Shown here one piece after another: positions 8,965 to 15,750 of a DNA stretch of 38,474 nt. The notes under the pieces were generated by a model. The model worked only from the letters and a program-made list of their open reading frames with translations. It ran no database searches and was not told where the DNA came from. The DNA is from a virus (Duplodnaviria > Heunggongvirae > Uroviricota > Caudoviricetes): IMG/VR virus record IMGVR_UViG_2778261226_000006; one strand, written 5' to 3'. Position 1 is the first letter of the stretch. Every line of letters begins with the position of its first letter. A program made the translations under genes and the position numbers.

Positions 8965-9576
8965 ATGGATTTAGTCTTTAAAGTTCTGGCTTCGTTGGGT
9001 GGGGTGTCTTTTGTTGCATCTGGCATATTTGTTTGGATCGGGAAAGTTTATTTAGAAAGATATAAGTCGCGGCTAAACAAAGATATTGCTGAATTTCAAT
9101 CACAACTGAGTGCAACTAATGAAAGAATAAAGGCTAAGTTAGACAATTCTGTTTATGTAACGAAAGCGTATTTTGATAAGGAGTTATCAGCATATAGTCT
9201 CATTTGGAATTCGATGTTTGAAACCAGAGAAAGCGTGCTTAAGCTGAGGCCTGCGCTGGATCATGTTGACCCCAACGAACCATTTGAAGAGAGAAAATTT
9301 AGAAGGTTGAAAGTTTTTTTTGATGCATTTAACACTTTTGTTACAAGTGTTGAATCTAACAAACCGTTCATCTCACCAGAGGTTTATATAATCTTGGACC
9401 GTTTCCGGAAGGAATGCCTTTCAGAGTCAATATCGTTTAAGCATAGCGATCCAGAATTTGACGGGCAAAATTATTGGAAAGAGGCGGAGTTGAACCATAC
9501 AACCATCACCAAGCTTTTTGATGAGACGTGTGATGCAATTCGAAACAGGATGCACACATTAACTGTGGTTACGTAG
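8965..9576 (+). CDS. Single-pass membrane protein with helical cytoplasmic domain (203 aa); cargo at the tin/old position next to cos
   Basis: N-terminal TM helix VLASLGGVSFVASGIFVWIG followed by a long predicted helical region. It starts a visibly AT-rich block. The position corresponds to the P2 tin/old variable locus. Confidence 0.75.
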   Translation: MDLVFKVLASLGGVSFVASGIFVWIGKVYLERYKSRLNKDIAEFQSQLSATNERIKAKLDNSVYVTKAYFDKELSAYSLIWNSMFETRESVLKLRPALDHVDPNEPFEERKFRRLKVFFDAFNTFVTSVESNKPFISPEVYIILDRFRKECLSESISFKHSDPEFDGQNYWKEAELNHTTITKLFDETCDAIRNRMHTLTVVT

Positions 9577-9668
9577 GTTTCCAAAAAGTCTCGATGCCCG
9601 CTTTGGAGATTGTGCATGTCTATGCCGCATGAATCCGCATGATCGTTTGAGGATCGTTTTAGCTGAGG

Positions 9669-9695
9669 CCCGCCAGGAGTGGCGGGATTTTGCTT
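9669..9695 (+). terminator. Rho-independent terminator-like hairpin
   Basis: CCCGCCA-ggag-TGGCGGG followed by ATTTTGCTT, downstream of the 203-aa ORF. Confidence 0.45.
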
Positions 9696-9736
9696 ATGTC
9701 ATGCAGGCGCATGAAAACCGCTACATAAAGCGGGCA

Positions 9737-9755
9737 GGCGTGGCGGGGATACGAG
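9737..9755. other. Candidate cos cohesive-end site (186-like)
   Basis: GGCGTGGCGGGGATACGAG shares its first 13 nt with the 186 cohesive end as I recall it (GGCGTGGCGGGGAAAGCAT; P2 is GGCGAGGCGGGGAAAGCAC). It lies in a GC-rich non-coding island between two AT-rich cargo blocks. Its orientation relative to Q matches P2. Confidence 0.55.
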
Positions 9756-9825
9756 CGCGCGCAAATATGGAAATTAGCTGCGTTTTGTTATATATAGGAG
9801 AGATATTAAAAGGGTAGGCACCACT

Positions 9826-10350
9826 ATGACTGTTTTACACCTTGTAGCAGACCACCTTGTTAAGCAGGCTAATACAACCCATAGAAAGGGGGAGGTGCAC
9901 GCAATATTAGCAGATGCATATGGTCGTTCTGCTTTTAATCGGTATTATTATGCTTGTTTTCTTAACGTCCGTGAGTTTGTTTCAACTATTGATTCCAATT
10001 GGGGCAAGGTCAAGCATGCAGATGTTCCAAAATTATTACGTGATAGTGTAAGTAGAAAGATAGAAGTTGAGCTCCAAAAATCAGAAAAAATTGGCGATAT
10101 AACTTTATGTGAATATAAATCTAAAAAGAGCTTAATACGTACTTCACTGAACAATATGGCTTCAACTATGGCATTGGCATATACAATTAGGGGAGTTGTT
10201 GATTATGAGCCGGAAATTGAGATGATATTCTGTAATGGCAGTTTTTCGATTAATAAAACATCAGTGGCTTCGGCTAAGGGGTGGCTACAAACCATTAATT
10301 CAGAAAGATCGAAGGTTACCAGAATTATGAAGGAGATTGGCTTTGTCTAA
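9826..10350 (+). CDS. HEPN-like all-helical protein (174 aa), first gene of the retron-associated operon
   Basis: AYGRSAFNRYYYACFLNVREFV...KVKHADVPKLL and a distal AYTIRGVVDYEPE resemble the HEPN (PF05168-type) pattern: ...YYA.F.a...l....sH... then R...DY. AT-rich. The stop overlaps the next ORF. Confidence 0.72.
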   Translation: MTVLHLVADHLVKQANTTHRKGEVHAILADAYGRSAFNRYYYACFLNVREFVSTIDSNWGKVKHADVPKLLRDSVSRKIEVELQKSEKIGDITLCEYKSKKSLIRTSLNNMASTMALAYTIRGVVDYEPEIEMIFCNGSFSINKTSVASAKGWLQTINSERSKVTRIMKEIGFV

Positions 10351-11080
10351 CCAGAAAATATTATCAGAATTGTTGGTAAAATTCCCGTTTATAAAAGTTA
10401 AAGATGTAACAGATTTTATGGATACAATTCTGTTGATCATCCCAATTAACAAAATAGTACCATTGTCTGCTTCGAATAGTATAACAAAACGCCAGATATC
10501 TTTATTGGTGAAACGAATAACAGAAAAGCTAAATGTAAGAGTGTTGATTAGTTACTCACCATTTTCAGATAAAGACAATATTGAAGCGGCTTTAGTGGCG
10601 TTAGCGAGAAGTAATTTTAAAAAAGGGAAGATATCTGATTTGAATTTATCTTTCTTTGATTCGCAAAACGCAGTGCTTTATGTCTTTTGTAAAAACCTTA
10701 CATTATCAGAACGCGAGAAGTGGGAGTCGTTAGTTGTAGGGATATTAAACGGTTTTAATATAAAAGTGACTTCATTTGTATATGAGGCTAAAAATAATCC
10801 TGAACCTACAATGATGGTTATTTTAAGAGCGGCAAAAAAATGTCAGCCCTTTGATCTTCCAAGATTGTTCAGTCAACTTGATAATGGCGATTATCATATT
10901 GAATCACTTGATTGGCTGAATGGGAAGCTAGACAACTTACGTAAGAAAGGATTTTTATTAAGAAGCCATGACGGAACTTATAGAATGACATTGTCAGGGT
11001 TAGAAATAGTTCCAGTGACTAAATCTAGGCAAAGTTCTGATATAGAGAGGGTCCTTTATCTTGCACGCAAACATCTATAG
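10337..11080 (+). CDS. Unknown protein with C-terminal winged-helix-like domain (about 245 aa), second gene of the retron-associated operon
   Basis: Overlaps the upstream stop (TTG 10337 or TTG 10343, 7 nt after GGAG). The C-terminal segment MMVILRAAKKCQPFDLPRLFSQLD...LDNLRKKGFLLRSHDGTYRMTLSGLEIV looks like a wHTH with a beta-wing. The N-terminal alpha/beta region was not recognised. Confidence 0.72.
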   Translation: MALSNQKILSELLVKFPFIKVKDVTDFMDTILLIIPINKIVPLSASNSITKRQISLLVKRITEKLNVRVLISYSPFSDKDNIEAALVALARSNFKKGKISDLNLSFFDSQNAVLYVFCKNLTLSEREKWESLVVGILNGFNIKVTSFVYEAKNNPEPTMMVILRAAKKCQPFDLPRLFSQLDNGDYHIESLDWLNGKLDNLRKKGFLLRSHDGTYRMTLSGLEIVPVTKSRQSSDIERVLYLARKHL

Positions 11081-11089
11081 TGGTATATT
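11061..11089 (+). promoter_or_regulatory. Sigma70 extended -10 promoter for the retron ncRNA
   Basis: TTGCAC (11061-11066), a 17-nt spacer containing TG, then TATATT (11084-11089): TGgTATATT. The predicted start, about 7 nt downstream, coincides with the first base of the a2 repeat (11096). Confidence 0.5.
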
Positions 11090-11095
11090 CGCGTT

Positions 11096-11268
11096 GGTAG
11101 TGGCGTTCACGAGAGTATGCATCATGCTCATTTGTGAAGGTCGCGGACAGAATGTGCGCCTGCGAATCAGCAGTCGTTCCTTCGAAACGTCTGCTGATTC
11201 GCAGGCGTCATCAACGAAAGTTTTCATCAGCTTTGCTTAAGGATTGACCTTATGAAAACGCCACTACC
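11096..11268 (+). ncRNA. Retron msr-msd non-coding RNA (template and primer for msDNA)
   Basis: 12-nt perfect inverted repeats GGTAGTGGCGTT (11096-11107, a2) and AACGCCACTACC (11257-11268, a1). Short msr-like hairpins lie at 11108-11136. The long msd hairpin has arm GCCTGCGAATCAGCAG (11158-11173) and arm CTGCTGATTCGCAGGC (11191-11206), 16 bp perfect, plus a 4-bp inner stem. It lies immediately upstream of, and overlaps the start of, a retron-type RT. Confidence 0.7.
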
Positions 11269-12229
11269 CTTATTTTTCACATTCACTGATGCCGAACAGT
11301 TTCTTAAGGCGTTGAGCACACCGCTGAGAGATAGATATTCTGCGGAACTTATTCGACTACAAGGCCTCAGGCTTCCCCCATTAGTTTCTTGGAGTATCTT
11401 GTCTGTTGCCATTGGCGTAAGCCCACAATTTATTACTTCGTTAATTAAGAATAAGTCAAAATACTATCGTGTTTTTTCTATTTCCAAAGGAAGAGGAAAG
11501 AAAAAAAGAATTATTGAAGCACCCAAGGTTAGTATAAAAATCATTCAGTCTTGGGTCGCTCATCATTTAAGCATTAATCATAGTCTTGGCATAAGTGAAA
11601 ATGCATATGCTTTTATCCCAGGTAAGAATGGGATATATGAAGCTGCAAGTAAACATTGTGGTGCAAAATGGATCCTGTCTATTGATTTAAGAGATTTTTT
11701 CCATACGATCACTTCAGATATAGTGATTTCAACATTAGTTGAAATCGGATATAGAGCCGATCAGGCTGCTAAATTGAGTGAATTACTTACCTTGAATCAG
11801 AGACTTCCGCAAGGTGCGCCAAGTAGCCCTGTTATCTCAAATTTAGTATTTAGGTCAACTGACTTAAAGATTAATGAGTTGATTTCTAATACGGGTATTA
11901 AATATACTAGATATGCTGATGATTTGACCTTCTCCGGTGATGATGAAACATTTGATATCGAGGAACTTAAAGATAATGTTGTAGAGTTGTTACTATCTGA
12001 TAATTGGGTTGTGGCTGAGGAAAAACTCAGAATAGCTAGGATTCCTAATAGATTAAAAGTACATGGTTTTCTAGTTCATGAAAATAAACCTAGATTGACT
12101 AAAGGCTATCGAAATAAAATTAGAGCATATAAACATTTATTGAGGACTGGGAAAATAGTTGAGAAGGATTTTGATAAAATTAAAGGGCATGTTAACTATA
12201 GTGAATATATTGATAGATTGAATGAGTAA
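11252..12229 (+). CDS. ret: Retron-type reverse transcriptase (325 aa)
   Basis: RT motifs KKKRIIEAP, SIDLRDFFHTI, LPQGAPSSPVISN and the YTRYADDLTFSG (YADD) active site. Retron-style NAYAF is present, and LKVHGFLV sits at the position of the retron VTG motif. Size is typical of stand-alone retron RTs. Confidence 0.92.
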   Translation: MKTPLPLFFTFTDAEQFLKALSTPLRDRYSAELIRLQGLRLPPLVSWSILSVAIGVSPQFITSLIKNKSKYYRVFSISKGRGKKKRIIEAPKVSIKIIQSWVAHHLSINHSLGISENAYAFIPGKNGIYEAASKHCGAKWILSIDLRDFFHTITSDIVISTLVEIGYRADQAAKLSELLTLNQRLPQGAPSSPVISNLVFRSTDLKINELISNTGIKYTRYADDLTFSGDDETFDIEELKDNVVELLLSDNWVVAEEKLRIARIPNRLKVHGFLVHENKPRLTKGYRNKIRAYKHLLRTGKIVEKDFDKIKGHVNYSEYIDRLNE

Positions 12230-12249
12230 GGGCCTAGCCCTTACTCATT
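12221..12249. terminator. Bidirectional hairpin between convergent ret and Q
   Basis: AATGAGTAAGGGC-cta-GCCCTTACTCATT is a 13-bp perfect stem that spans both stop codons. Confidence 0.6.
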
Positions 12250-13280
12250 TAATTTAATGTGTATATTCCAAAGGATATGATTTTATCTCCTATCCAGTTA
12301 TTTAACTCTTCTAGTCTTCTCTGTAATGGTATTAACTCATTCCTCACAAAAACAAGGCTTGCCTTCTCCACATCCCCAAAACCCCCAACATTATTAGGCA
12401 TTATCCCCATCATTTGTGGGGGTACACGATGCGCCGCCATCATGTCGTCCCGGCTTACGTTCTTGATGTTCAGAAACTCATCCTTCGCCGCGACTTCTGA
12501 TAACGGGATAATCTGAAGTCCGTCCTTTTTGCCGTTAGGAGAGTACATAAACAGATTGCGGAAGTTACCTGGTCCTTTGGCGCTTTTCATTGCATTGCGG
12601 AGGTTGTTCACATCCTCCTGGTTTTGTGCGGCGTCGGTCATGTACATGATGAAGCCTGCATGACTGCCGTTGATGTAATACTTCCGGCGGAACAGCGTGG
12701 CGGACTCGTTGAGCAGGGCTGACGGAATGGCAGAAAGATAACCGGGCAGGCCGTAGATCTCCTGGTTGATGTCCGGTTCCATCAGATGAAAAATGCTGCC
12801 TTTCGTGAACTGATACGGCTGGGTTGTCATACCGTATTGCACAAACCAGTAGGTATCCAGGTCTAACCCGCGTCGGGTGTATTTTGCCAGAGCAGGCTCA
12901 AGGGCGATAACTTCACCAAACCGGTTCGTGCGTTTCTCCAGGTAGGCGTTACCAAATACCAGATAGTCCTGCACAAAACGTGAAAAAGCCTGTTGGCTGA
13001 GCAGCGGGTGAGGGATGTAGGTGCTGGTCAGAATGTTGCATTTCACCGCAATCGGTGAGCTGTGATGCACGGCGGCGCGGAAGGTTCGCGCCAGTCCGTC
13101 AAAGCTGACGGGAGGCTCATACCAGCGATCTGTCTGTACGCATTCCACATAGTCCAGCAGTTCGCGGCGGTCAAGTACTGGAATGGGATCACCGAAGCTG
13201 AAAGCCTCAGCCGTTGGAGCGTTGCCTGGTTTTGTGTTGTGATCAACCTTTACCAGTTTGATGTTTTTATGTTTGCTCAT
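12249..13280 (-). CDS. Q: Portal protein (P2 gpQ)
   Basis: 343 aa at the P2 Q position and orientation. Sequence is of the P2 portal family (…YGLPGYLSAIPSALLNESATLFRRKYY…). Confidence 0.92.
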   Translation of the reverse strand: MSKHKNIKLVKVDHNTKPGNAPTAEAFSFGDPIPVLDRRELLDYVECVQTDRWYEPPVSFDGLARTFRAAVHHSSPIAVKCNILTSTYIPHPLLSQQAFSRFVQDYLVFGNAYLEKRTNRFGEVIALEPALAKYTRRGLDLDTYWFVQYGMTTQPYQFTKGSIFHLMEPDINQEIYGLPGYLSAIPSALLNESATLFRRKYYINGSHAGFIMYMTDAAQNQEDVNNLRNAMKSAKGPGNFRNLFMYSPNGKKDGLQIIPLSEVAAKDEFLNIKNVSRDDMMAAHRVPPQMMGIMPNNVGGFGDVEKASLVFVRNELIPLQRRLEELNNWIGDKIISFGIYTLN

Positions 13281-13984
13281 TCTGCCAGCTCCTCGTTAGC
13301 AAGAGGCCATTCGCACATAAACAGCATTCCCCAGTCCTCTGCTGATAATTCTTTTTTCATATCATTCAGCCAGTTATCAGTAAACAACATTGCTCCTGAT
13401 GCTACTGCATCATCAGCGGTGAATACCATGCGGGTTACACTGTTGTTTCTGCTTAGCTTTTTATATTCCTGCCATGCCTCCGGGTTAGGGCTGGGAGTGG
13501 TGTAGTAGGTGGCGTGGTGGTGTGCGTGCAAGGACATTCCTTTGGCGAGAGTAATCATATTTCTCGGTGATTCAGCCCAGGCATACTCTGACACGTAGAC
13601 ATTTCCACTGAGTGCGGCGGCGTGGCACTTGAGGTCGATAAAATAAATGACCGCACCATTGGGAAACTCCAGATATGTTTTGCCAGATTTTATTTTTCCA
13701 GTGCGCGTATAAGCTGCGGTCTGGCTTAAAAATGCTGACACATAGGCTTTGACTGCCTGCGCTGATGCGGTGCTGCAGCAGAGGAAAATCTGGTTACGCC
13801 CGGTATGCAGTGCATCGATCAGGGCCTCATAGGCAAAAAAGAAATCCGCTCCTGCCTGGCGCATTTTTGTGAGTAAACGGTTTCTACTCTTTGGGCCAGT
13901 GTTCCACTCATACTGGTAATCAAAGAAAGTGCTATCCACCGGAAGTCCCGCGATAGTCATGAGGTTAGTTGGGATTGGGGGCAT
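13277..13984 (-). CDS. Terminase-large-subunit ATPase-domain paralogue (235 aa), lacking the N-terminal and nuclease domains
   Basis: Aligns by eye to roughly residues 150-395 of the adjacent gpP. FFFAYEALIDALHTGRNQIFLCCS matches FYFAHEALIDALLTGRNQIFLSAS. NVYVSEYAW matches NLYLDEYFW. YYTTPS matches YFSTPS. MLFMCEW matches LLMCEF. Start and stop overlap the P stop and the Q start. Confidence 0.8.
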   Translation of the reverse strand: MPPIPTNLMTIAGLPVDSTFFDYQYEWNTGPKSRNRLLTKMRQAGADFFFAYEALIDALHTGRNQIFLCCSTASAQAVKAYVSAFLSQTAAYTRTGKIKSGKTYLEFPNGAVIYFIDLKCHAAALSGNVYVSEYAWAESPRNMITLAKGMSLHAHHHATYYTTPSPNPEAWQEYKKLSRNNSVTRMVFTADDAVASGAMLFTDNWLNDMKKELSAEDWGMLFMCEWPLANEELAE

Positions 13985-15750
13985 CAAAAAATCTCCACAA
14001 TATTGCTGGTATTGGCGGACTCGCCCTGCAGCGGTTCGTTAAACAGTGCGTGCATTGTTGCCCAGGCCAGATCGGCATGGCTGGCTTCTTCGCTGCGGCT
14101 GGCTTCATAGGTCGGGCGGTTGCCGCTGGCGGTGGTGGCGCGACGGATTGCCATAAATGACTGCGCAATGTCGGTGTGCCCGGCGTCAAACTCCAGACGG
14201 CGGTGGCTGATAATGTCGTAGGCCTTGAGTACCAGGGCGTTTTTAACGTTGGGGTTGTAGACAAACTCCCGGACGGCAGGAAAGAACGCTTTCACGTTCT
14301 CGTAAACTCCGTGACCGACACCTGTCGAGTCGATACCGATATAGGTCACGTTGTACTGTTCGGTCAGTTTTTTGATGGCGTCAGCCTGGGCGCGGAAGTC
14401 CATCCCGCGCCACTGGTGACGCTCAAGAATGCGAAACTTACCGCCTGGCACGGCTGGCGGTGCCACCACCACGCATCCGGCGCTGTCGCCGTTCTGCGTA
14501 CCTTTTGCCGGGTCATAACCGATCCACACTTCTCGCCAGCCAAACGGGCGCAGGGCCAGTGCATGAAAGTCGGTCCAGACTTCCCAACTGTCCACCATGC
14601 ATGCCTGCAGCTCGCTGAGCGGAAATACGGACGCGAGATCGTCCACGAATTCACACATCAGCAGGTTCTGGTATTCGTCCGGGCTGTATTCCATGCGCAA
14701 CTGGTCAAGGTCGAACAGGTTACAGCCGCCGCGCACCGCATCTTCCACGGTGACTATCTGGCGGTATTGCCCGTCTGCACACAGCAGGCCTGGAGCCAGA
14801 TTGCTGTGGGACAGGTCGATGTCCACCTTGTCGGCTTTATTGCGCCCACGGTTGAATAGCGCACCGGACCAGAACGGATAAGCACTGTGTGTCAGGCTGG
14901 ATGGCGTGGAAAAATAGGTTTGTCGCCATTTTTTGTGAATAGCCATACCGGAAGCCACTTTGCGCAGCTCCTGGAATTTCGGTATCCAGAAATATTCATC
15001 CAGATACAGGTTTCCGTGGTAACTCTGGGCCGTGCGGGCATTGGTGCCGAGGAAATACAGTGTGGCCCCGTTGGGAAGCACCATCGGATCGCCTTTCAGC
15101 TCCACTTCCACTTCTTTGGCGAAGTCGATGATGTACTGCTTAAAGACGTGGGCCTGTGCCTTGCTGGCGGAAAGGAAAATCTGGTTACGTCCGGTAAGCA
15201 GAGCGTCAATCAGGGCTTCATGGGCAAAGTAAAAGGTCGCGCCGATCTGGCGTGACTTCAGCAGGTTGCGGATGCGGTTGGTTTTTCCGGCTTCCCACCA
15301 GTGGCGCTGGTAGTTGAACATGGAGGAATGGAAGATTTCTTCCAGCTTCTCAATCTGCTCATCGGTGAAAACATTCTTTTCCGGCTGACGGCGCGGGCCT
15401 TTGTTGCGGTTGGCGACGTTAGGGTTTAAGTCGGCTTCGTTGCCGCCATTGTTAAACTTGCCGATCCGCGCGTGGCGTTCCGACTGGCGCGCCAGCAGGT
15501 CAATCTCTTTGAAATCTTTCCCTTCTTTGTGCTCCTTCATAATGAGCTGGCAGTAGCGTGCGGCGGTGGTGAGCTGCATCTGATCCAGCGGCCCATAGTC
15601 ACCCCACTTGTCGCGTTTCTTCCAGCTGTGAACGGTTGCAACTTTCTCGCCCAGCATTTCAGCAATGCGGGCTACACGGTATCCCTGAAAGTACAGCAGC
15701 ATGGCCTGCCGACGGGGATCGAGATCTGCGGGTGTCAGTGTGGTGTTCAT
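13984..15750 (-). CDS. P: Terminase large subunit (P2 gpP)
   Basis: 588 aa with an ATPase segment (KSRQIGATFYFA, LYLDEYFW) and a C-terminal nuclease-type domain (IGYDPA...IGIDSTGVG). Occupies the P2 P position. Confidence 0.93.
   Translation of the reverse strand: MNTTLTPADLDPRRQAMLLYFQGYRVARIAEMLGEKVATVHSWKKRDKWGDYGPLDQMQLTTAARYCQLIMKEHKEGKDFKEIDLLARQSERHARIGKFNNGGNEADLNPNVANRNKGPRRQPEKNVFTDEQIEKLEEIFHSSMFNYQRHWWEAGKTNRIRNLLKSRQIGATFYFAHEALIDALLTGRNQIFLSASKAQAHVFKQYIIDFAKEVEVELKGDPMVLPNGATLYFLGTNARTAQSYHGNLYLDEYFWIPKFQELRKVASGMAIHKKWRQTYFSTPSSLTHSAYPFWSGALFNRGRNKADKVDIDLSHSNLAPGLLCADGQYRQIVTVEDAVRGGCNLFDLDQLRMEYSPDEYQNLLMCEFVDDLASVFPLSELQACMVDSWEVWTDFHALALRPFGWREVWIGYDPAKGTQNGDSAGCVVVAPPAVPGGKFRILERHQWRGMDFRAQADAIKKLTEQYNVTYIGIDSTGVGHGVYENVKAFFPAVREFVYNPNVKNALVLKAYDIISHRRLEFDAGHTDIAQSFMAIRRATTASGNRPTYEASRSEEASHADLAWATMHALFNEPLQGESANTSNIVEIF

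Follow-up and report, generated by a model that had tools for sequence, protein, structure and literature searches.

Does the AT-rich block between the cos site and the portal gene of a P2-like prophage encode a new kind of retron or one that has already been classified? The question is raised by IMG/VR record IMGVR_UViG_2778261226_000006, a Caudoviricetes sequence of 38,474 nucleotides (nt) that we refer to as the window and whose numbering is used throughout. An initial annotation, made from the sequence letters and a list of open reading frames (ORFs), described positions 9826-12249 as a retron with four components: a HEPN-like ORF, an ORF ending in a winged helix-turn-helix (HTH) domain, a structured noncoding RNA (ncRNA), and a reverse transcriptase (RT). 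It also suggested that this combination might be an undescribed subtype. Our analysis agrees with the retron call and points to a different answer on novelty. The block is very probably a complete type IX retron, carried as cos-proximal cargo of a P2/186-like prophage and acting by the mechanism described for Retron-Sen3, Retron-Kva2, and Retron-Yin1. The observation is real, but it is not new, since the system type is already known.

The three ORFs lie where they were first placed, all on the plus strand, at 9826-10350 (174 amino acids [aa]), 10337-11080 (247 aa), and 11252-12229 (325 aa, with a YADD motif). A PADLOC search, which the initial annotation had itself proposed as a check, matched three type IX models, one per protein and each at full length: HEPN_IX (E value of 1.4e-52), HTH_IX (1.5e-61), and RT_IX (4.2e-129). 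These matches are mutually consistent. The models derive from the type IX class of Mestre et al. 2020 (PMC7736814), who associated the type IX RT clade with a cluster of HEPN-like proteins whose His/Arg site is non-canonical. A single Protein Data Bank (PDB) entry, 36ht (Retron-Kva2), holds end-to-end homologues of all three proteins. Further inspection revealed that the RT is 100% identical to WP_088551309.1 from Escherichia coli MFDS1016424, whose locus matches the window at 99.5% identity over 9612-12400. This accession is given as a type IX RT in Table S1 of Carabias et al. 2026 (10.64898/2026.07.14.737667); a search of main-text literature for it returned nothing, as it appears only in that supplementary table. 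Of the residues that were tested by mutation or pointed out in structures of Sen3 or Kva2, all 22 are present at identical numbers in the HEPN, WH (winged-helix), and RT proteins. The gene order HEPN-WH-ncRNA-RT, on one strand, is the same in the window and in the comparison loci L003-L009 and L083-L090.

Assignment to type II-A (Ec86/St85-like) was considered and failed. The second-best RT model was RT_II-A (E value of 6e-67), with 224 bits against 428 for RT_IX, and the NCBIfam model retron_St85_RT scored 214.6, under its cutoff of 235. The ORF list and the PADLOC and Pfam searches revealed no NDT protein in the locus.

The first gene (9826-10350, plus strand) encodes a 174-aa protein that is, by homology, the HEPN RNase effector (toxin), in line with its first description as HEPN-like. 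The HEPN_IX match covers protein residues 4-172 and profile positions 1-160 of 161. The chain deposited in 36ht as 'Retron-Kva2 HEPN' aligns over residues 1-174 of 174 with 60% identity (E value of 5e-67). The active site is of the non-canonical His...Arg type, in place of Rx4-6H, and both members of the catalytic pair (H64 and R122) are kept. Residues D56, S57, I89, and D91 likewise are present.

The second gene overlaps the HEPN stop codon and encodes a WH protein with a predicted KH1-KH2-HTH layout, in which two N-terminal KH-like domains would bind HEPN, so the reading of this ORF as one that ends in a winged HTH domain was right. The HTH_IX profile matches it at full length, and the 36ht chain 'Retron-Kva2 WH' aligns with 51% identity (E value of 3.6e-78), residues 6-247 of the 247-aa version corresponding to residues 4-245. 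An ORF of 247 aa does exist from TTG 10337, as first listed. The most likely start, however, is TTG 10343, which lies 8 nt past an AGGAG, is the start chosen by PGAP, gives the 245-aa length of the Kva2 protein, and fits the Sen3 numbering. Residue numbers agree with the published ones only with this start, so the length should read 245 aa and the gene 10343-11080 (plus strand). In this numbering, D197, R200, K201, R207, V237, L240, and A241 are all present, and the first four of these are the residues that read the multicopy single-stranded DNA (msDNA). The C-terminal 14 residues (SDIERVLYLARKHL) are intact and conserved. By analogy with its relatives, the WH protein would bind and mask HEPN and read the tip of the msDNA stem-loop. 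An AbiE (AbiEi) identity for this protein was also considered; the match was marginal (E value of 0.0029), with no stretch passing alone, and it reflects generic winged HTH similarity. No AbiEii nucleotidyltransferase partner is encoded at the locus.

The third gene (11252-12229, plus strand) encodes the retron RT, with the YADD motif at residues 221-224 and an N-terminal domain (residues ~1-45) that is specific to type IX. RT_IX matches protein residues 1-324 and profile positions 1-316 of 317 (428 bits). The RT chain of 36ht aligns from residue 1 to residue 325 with 61% identity (E value of 1.5e-145). Residues T10, V56, R73, F75, I97, and Y221-D224 are present, and the N-terminal 39 residues are intact. 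In Kva2, these 39 residues and the C-terminal 14 residues of WH are both essential, and the N-terminal extension of the RT (~1-45) contacts the C-terminal helix of WH. The same contact may be expected in the window retron.

The initial annotation had placed a structured noncoding region between the second ORF and the RT gene, and this was borne out both by folding and by covariation. The 171-nt gap between WH and RT has a minimum free energy of -82.1 kcal/mol (z = -7.1), which none of 200 shuffled sequences equaled. The fold is closed by paired a1 and a2 segments and contains one small and one long hairpin. The ncRNA as a whole is 173 nt long (11096-11268, plus strand), as delimited by the fold, a covariance model, and collinearity with Kva2, and its last 17 nt overlap the start of the RT gene. 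On the same strand, a1 (GGUAGUGGCGUU, 11096-11107) pairs with a2 (AACGCCACUACC, 11257-11268). The msr stem-loop (11113-11129) and a linker (11130-11139) are followed by the msd template (11140-11215, ncRNA positions 45-120, placed by Kva2 collinearity). Within the template lies the long msd hairpin (11153-11210), with a conserved tip at 11184-11191 that reads UCCUUCGA as RNA and TCGAAGGA as DNA. Stem-loop 3 (GAAAGU...AGCUUUG, 11216-11235, plus strand) was recognized by homology to Kva2 and has one extra loop nucleotide compared with it.

Comparison with other loci indicated that this structure has been conserved. In five close loci (the window, Citrobacter sedlakii, Morganella, Serratia ficaria, and a diverged P2-like phage), the ncRNA is 91% identical, compared with 55-88% for the proteins, and compensatory changes are visible. 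A covariance model trained on those five sequences was applied to a wider set of 80 retron-RT loci, one genome per species, collected with the generic motifs YTRYADDL and RLKVHG[FL]LV; other retron types predominate in this set, and close enterobacterial relatives were missed by it. Seven of the 80 listed loci have an RT of the type IX clade, 38-45% identical to that of the window including the N terminus. They come from Chromobacterium, Paraburkholderia, a Paracoccaceae metagenome-assembled genome, Shewanella, Undibacterium, Roseomonas, and Ideonella. Among the matches listed for this set, here and for the proteins below, the model gave a full-length match in all seven distant loci (34-97 bits), each on the coding strand between the WH stop and the RT start, and in none of the 73 loci of other types. 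Matches of the model on the minus strand (51-56 bits, against 195-212) were rejected as mirror images of the hairpins.

Across ten plus-strand sequences, one from each locus, 93.6% of alignment cells can pair, compared with 35-44% when the partners are slid by 1-3 columns. Two-sided changes were found at 35 pairs, compared with 18 ± 2.6 after shuffling, and none of 500 shuffles reached 35. The covarying pairs include 10 of the 11 in the a1/a2 helix and 17 of the 26 in the msd helix. The alignment was fitted to the model, so these counts are somewhat inflated; the slid controls and an alignment made with MAFFT alone agree with them. Below the tip, the msd stem covaries freely; the tip itself hardly varies among loci that range from Enterobacteriaceae to Chromobacterium and Paraburkholderia. 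A nearly invariant tip over a covarying stem fits the notion that the WH protein reads the tip in a sequence-specific manner.

When the ncRNA is numbered from 11096, each of the Kva2 landmarks recurs with identical letters: the G18-C34 stem-loop, the A35-G44 linker, A42, G44, G45, and A52. In Kva2, G45-C120 templates dG1-dC76, the product is cut between dA5 and dT6, and the branching G (G139) follows stem-loop 3, unlike in typical retrons (Hayashi et al., 10.64898/2026.07.14.738597). The predicted msd of the window shares dG1, dA5, dT6, dA8, dC9, dG10, dC58, dG59, dC60, dA61, dA63, dT64, dG68, dT69, and dC76 with Kva2. By the same correspondence, the branching G is predicted to be 11235, the equivalent of Kva2 G139, with 11216 as the opposing G. 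The msDNA is predicted to be the reverse complement of 11140-11215, 76 nt long and trimmed to 71 nt, which is the length of the mature msDNA of both Sen3 and Kva2. In 71-nt numbering, its tip carries T26, G28, A29, A30, G31, and G32, the bases that HTH residues recognize in Yin1 and Sen3.

Whether the companion genes travel with this RT clade was another check proposed in the initial annotation. In 7 of the 7 distant clade-IX loci, the RT gene is immediately preceded by homologues of both HEPN and WH, with order and strand unchanged, and neither occurs in any of the 73 other retron-RT loci. A scan of genome contigs with patterns back-translated from a single RT protein gave no matches, the patterns being too specific. 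The retron is rare in E. coli, with 3 copies in 5,426 complete genomes; these are 99.1-99.5% identical and carry the same ORFs.

Close relatives place the block in five further contexts, and it was on mobile elements in every context seen. A type IX retron with 87-88% protein identity occurs in Citrobacter sedlakii and a Logan contig (L083/L084, 5001-7404). In Citrobacter, it lies in a small island with integrase, AlpA, and DUF927 genes beside smpB, which looks like a satellite or an integrative element; the module thus passes between P2-like phages and mobile elements of other kinds. The Morganella block is near an HNH gene and an integrase, and the Serratia block is in a remnant that includes an Ogr/Delta gene. 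In a diverged P2-like phage (L089/L090, 5001-7404), type IX proteins with only 59-60% identity to those of the window are encoded in the identical slot between gpA and portal. This suggests repeated or ancient use of the hotspot by type IX retrons.

The window itself is a P2/186-like prophage and looks complete. The best whole-region matches were E. coli prophages of 96-98% identity. In these, the genes for CII, Fil, Dam, gpA, and DinI lie to one side and those for portal, terminase, and capsid to the other. That the block lies between cos and portal was confirmed on both sides, by alignment to the end and cos of the phage Cartapus record on the left and by the portal stop codon at 12249 on the right. 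The linear Cartapus record ends at window position 9704, and its 'putative cos site' (record positions 1-59), annotated as 'homologous to the cos of P2 phage', aligns to 9705-9763. An invariant core, ATAAAGCGGGCAGGCGTGGCGGGGATA, lies at ~9725-9751, and ~150 bp around cos is the only portion of 9600-12250 common to other P2-like phages. A search for the 19-mer of the P2 cohesive end gave no match with up to 3 mismatches allowed, so cos was placed by the annotated end of the Cartapus record. A 62-aa ORF that runs across cos (9629-9817, plus strand) is almost certainly not a gene, because its sequence is conserved as cos DNA; its equivalent in MFDS1016424 is annotated by PGAP as a pseudogene with an internal stop.

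The composition profile supports the description of the block as AT rich, with a GC fraction of 0.36 over 9826-12249 compared with 0.51 for the whole window. GC drops at ~9850 and returns to a higher level at ~12400. The ORF block is real, but the cargo begins at ~9767 rather than at 9826. Homology to Cartapus ends after GCGCGC at ~9766, while MFDS1016424, which has the same retron, stays identical. The left junction, 5' leader, and presumed promoter region thus occupy 9767-9825 (plus strand). On the right, a perfect 13- to 14-bp hairpin (AAUGAGUAAGGGC / GCCCUUACUCAUU, 12220-12250) lies between the convergent stops of RT (12229) and portal (12249). It is probably a bidirectional terminator that forms the right edge of the cargo; it also gave a spurious Rfam 'MIR405' match on both strands.

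At the same slot, before portal, Cartapus has a DUF4145 gene where the window has the retron, and other prophages have P-loop NTPase, TIR, AIPR, or other genes. The slot is the gpA-cos-gpQ hotspot of P2-like phages, in which retrons are among the cargo (Rousset et al. 2022, PMC9122126). The initial annotation was correct in placing the block in a variable locus of the P2 family. On the gpA side of cos, an AT-rich stretch (GC fraction of 0.40) contains an ORF of 203 aa (8965-9576, plus strand) whose product has a hydrophobic helix at its N terminus. Searches of Pfam, NCBIfam, and PADLOC assigned it to no family, and it matches phrog_26391 (function unknown, 8.7e-142). This ORF is equivalent to Cartapus gp47; the MFDS1016424 prophage lacks it even though the retron is common to both. 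It appears to be a separate piece of cargo that occupies the opposite half of the hotspot. Beyond portal, an extra gene of 236 aa (13277-13987, minus strand) separates portal from the terminase genes. Its product is a diverged paralogue of one part of the neighboring 588-aa terminase large subunit, the ATPase domain at residues 142-368 (34% identity, E value of 3e-34), and matches phrog_3746, 'terminase large subunit' (1.2e-85). The gene also is present in E. coli MFDS1016424; in Cartapus, portal directly abuts terminase.

By orthology to Retron-Sen3 and Retron-Yin1 (Carabias et al., 10.64898/2026.07.14.737667) and to Retron-Kva2 (Hayashi et al., 10.64898/2026.07.14.738597; Hibshman et al., PMC13405049), all described in preprints of July 2026, we infer how the window retron may work. 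The operon would be transcribed in the order HEPN-WH-ncRNA-RT, and RT and ncRNA would yield a 76-nt msDNA templated by 11140-11215. The RT-msDNA would then join WH and HEPN dimers in a higher-order complex, in which the N-terminal domains of WH and the msDNA would occlude the composite H64/R122 site and keep the RNase inactive. The published assemblies are a ring of 8 to 10 units (Yin1), a sheet (Kva2), and an asymmetric complex (Kva2), and H64/R122 is occluded in all three. Upon infection, the msDNA would be disturbed by a phage factor, either through cutting of the stem-loop base by a phage nuclease, such as the PD-(D/E)XK nuclease B14T or the lambda-exo-like Bas24-Exo, or through competitive binding by an HTH protein, such as T5 D5. 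The assembly would loosen, and HEPN would cut tRNA anticodon loops and rRNA, leading to a translation stop and arrest (abortive infection). In this way, the lysogen population, and hence the prophage, would be shielded from competing phages. In the model retrons, Kva2 HEPN alone is toxic, and either WH or WH plus RT-msDNA neutralizes the toxicity. Protection that depends on RT and HEPN, with tRNA/rRNA cleavage, is known from Sen3, Kva2, and Yin1; for Sen3 and Kva2, it reaches up to 1e5-fold against many phages and is obtained from the native promoters.

Several points weigh against the assignment of a complete, working type IX retron. A consensus scan for promoters and terminators upstream of the block revealed no convincing sigma-70 promoter, with 7 promoter-like sites compared with 9.6 expected by chance. 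Of the named msDNA nucleotides, one differs, Kva2 dA70 being C in the window. A permissive Rfam search of 9000-13000 found no retron family and only chance hairpins (MIR405, RsaD, and a CRISPR repeat); no Rfam family detects this ncRNA, so Rfam cannot confirm it. The msDNA production, defense, and trigger proposed here are carried over from relatives that are 51-61% identical in protein sequence (Kva2) or roughly 87% identical in nucleotide sequence (Sen3). Finally, the preprints disagree on both architecture and trigger, so the trigger step is tentative even for the model retrons.

How, then, do other explanations fare against these data? The proposal that the block is an undescribed subtype, with two companion proteins as new effectors, has in its favor that both look novel to general annotation: neither belongs to a family in Pfam, NCBIfam, or PHROGs, and RefSeq/PGAP labels both 'hypothetical protein'. 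This is why they looked unfamiliar in the initial annotation, whose by-eye list of effector signatures, none of which was recognized, omitted the HEPN and winged HTH pair of type IX that its own title named. The proposal nevertheless can be set aside with near certainty. The full-length HEPN_IX and HTH_IX matches, the 36ht homologues, and an identical RT already tabulated as type IX all stand against it, and the HEPN-like cluster and RT clade were already described in Mestre et al. 2020 (PMC7736814). The RT thus belongs to a classified type whose accessory genes are homologous to both ORFs, which is exactly the outcome that the initial annotation had named as counting against novelty. A second explanation accepts the type and takes this copy to be silent or decayed, producing no msDNA or no defense, for example, because its promoter was lost at the cos insertion or because H-NS silences it. 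The promoter scan, the AT-rich composition, and the rarity of the retron in E. coli are compatible with this. We nonetheless consider it improbable, given three intact ORFs, the full set of functional residues, an ncRNA conserved above the proteins with compensatory changes, the near identity of the three E. coli copies, and the activity of Sen3 and Kva2 from their native promoters.

Two further alternatives concern what the intact retron does. A phage HTH protein, and not nuclease cleavage, may be the main trigger; such a protein would compete with WH for the tip of the msDNA and would remodel the complex. Escaper mutations of T5 fall in D5, D5 toxicity is amplified by Kva2, and D5 depletes higher-order species in mass photometry (Hibshman et al., PMC13405049); moreover, the msDNA tip and the four tip-reading WH residues are strictly conserved in the window. 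However, the binding of D5 to msDNA is an AlphaFold3 prediction, and two independent groups showed, with catalytic-mutant controls, that phage nucleases cleave the msDNA and that HEPN is then released. The two triggers are not mutually exclusive, and we regard a mainly HTH-driven one as possible, if somewhat doubtful. A main role in prophage addiction or stabilization, as a toxin-antitoxin module and not in defense, draws on the toxicity of Kva2 HEPN alone, its mitigation by WH alone, and the presence of the block on mobile elements wherever it was seen. We think this very improbable, in view of the strong RT- and HEPN-dependent protection by Sen3 and Kva2 and of the slot being a documented defense hotspot, although neither role excludes the other. 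Within the type IX assignment that we favor, the trigger range of this allele may differ from those of Sen3, Kva2, and Yin1, which we consider unlikely; for example, the allele might be tuned to the nucleases or DNA-binding proteins of phages or satellites in competition with P2/186-like prophages and be blind to the lytic cycle of its own phage. Relative to Sen3, its msd stem has a compensatory pair and one change near the stem base, and it departs from Kva2 at dA70. If the trigger range does differ, this retron would be a natural variant with which to map how msDNA sequence relates to trigger specificity in type IX retrons.

The locus has little discovery value, as the type was classified in 2020, is detectable by PADLOC, was characterized by three groups in July 2026, and already has this exact RT on record. 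Its value is more modest: it is a clean, intact, E. coli-compatible example of type IX on an apparently complete P2/186-like prophage. It also documents type IX cargo for the gpA-cos-gpQ hotspot, in a slot shared with the diverged P2-like phage described above. Pfam, NCBIfam, PHROGs, and PGAP leave two of the three proteins hypothetical, and by-eye readers will therefore keep rediscovering such loci.

Among the closest known systems is Retron-Sen3 of Salmonella enterica subsp. arizonae. It and the window retron agree in their four components and the order of these, and they have ~87% DNA identity over ~690 positions sampled from published primers and the same protein lengths and numbering (H64, R122, D223/D224, and D197/R200/K201/R207). 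The mature msDNA of Sen3 likewise is 71 nt, the length predicted for the window, and has an identical tip. The msd segment differs at three positions (62 of 65 nt match), two of which make up the compensatory pair. Several amino acid changes, such as D66E and K69T in HEPN, mark the window copy as a distinct allele, and it resides on an E. coli-type P2/186-like prophage.

Retron-Kva2 of Klebsiella variicola (PDB 36ht) aligns end to end in all three proteins. Its ncRNA is collinear with that of the window, and the agreement extends to the unusual branching G that follows stem-loop 3 and to the nucleotides that form base triples where the msd hairpin begins. Identity, however, is only 60% (HEPN), 51% (WH), and 61% (RT). 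The Kva2 RT has 327 aa compared with 325 in the window, and the dA70-to-C change and the longer stem-loop 3 (by 1 nt) also set the window copy apart. Retron-Yin1 of Yersinia intermedia, for which the ring structure was determined, has the same architecture, and its inter-unit HTH residues and msDNA tip nucleotides are conserved in the window. It differs in that RT identity is 48%, its msDNA is 70 nt, and the catalytic Arg of its HEPN is R116.

Retrons Ec67 and Ec86 in 186-related prophages occupy the same position, as cargo adjoining cos, but they belong to types I-C (an RT-Toprim fusion) and II-A (an NDT effector) and thus use other effectors. Dodd and Egan reportedly noted in 1996 that both replace DNA between cos and a terminator of a 186-related prophage. 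Both structure papers identify HEPN-MNT toxin-antitoxin systems as the closest structural neighbors of the type IX HEPN, although sequence identity to Kva2 is only 9%. These systems likewise comprise a dimeric HEPN RNase toxin that is kept inactive by a partner. Unlike them, type IX retrons have neither the MNT nucleotidyltransferase nor the canonical Rx4-6H motif, and inhibition is exerted by a KH-KH-winged HTH protein together with msDNA instead of by AMPylation.

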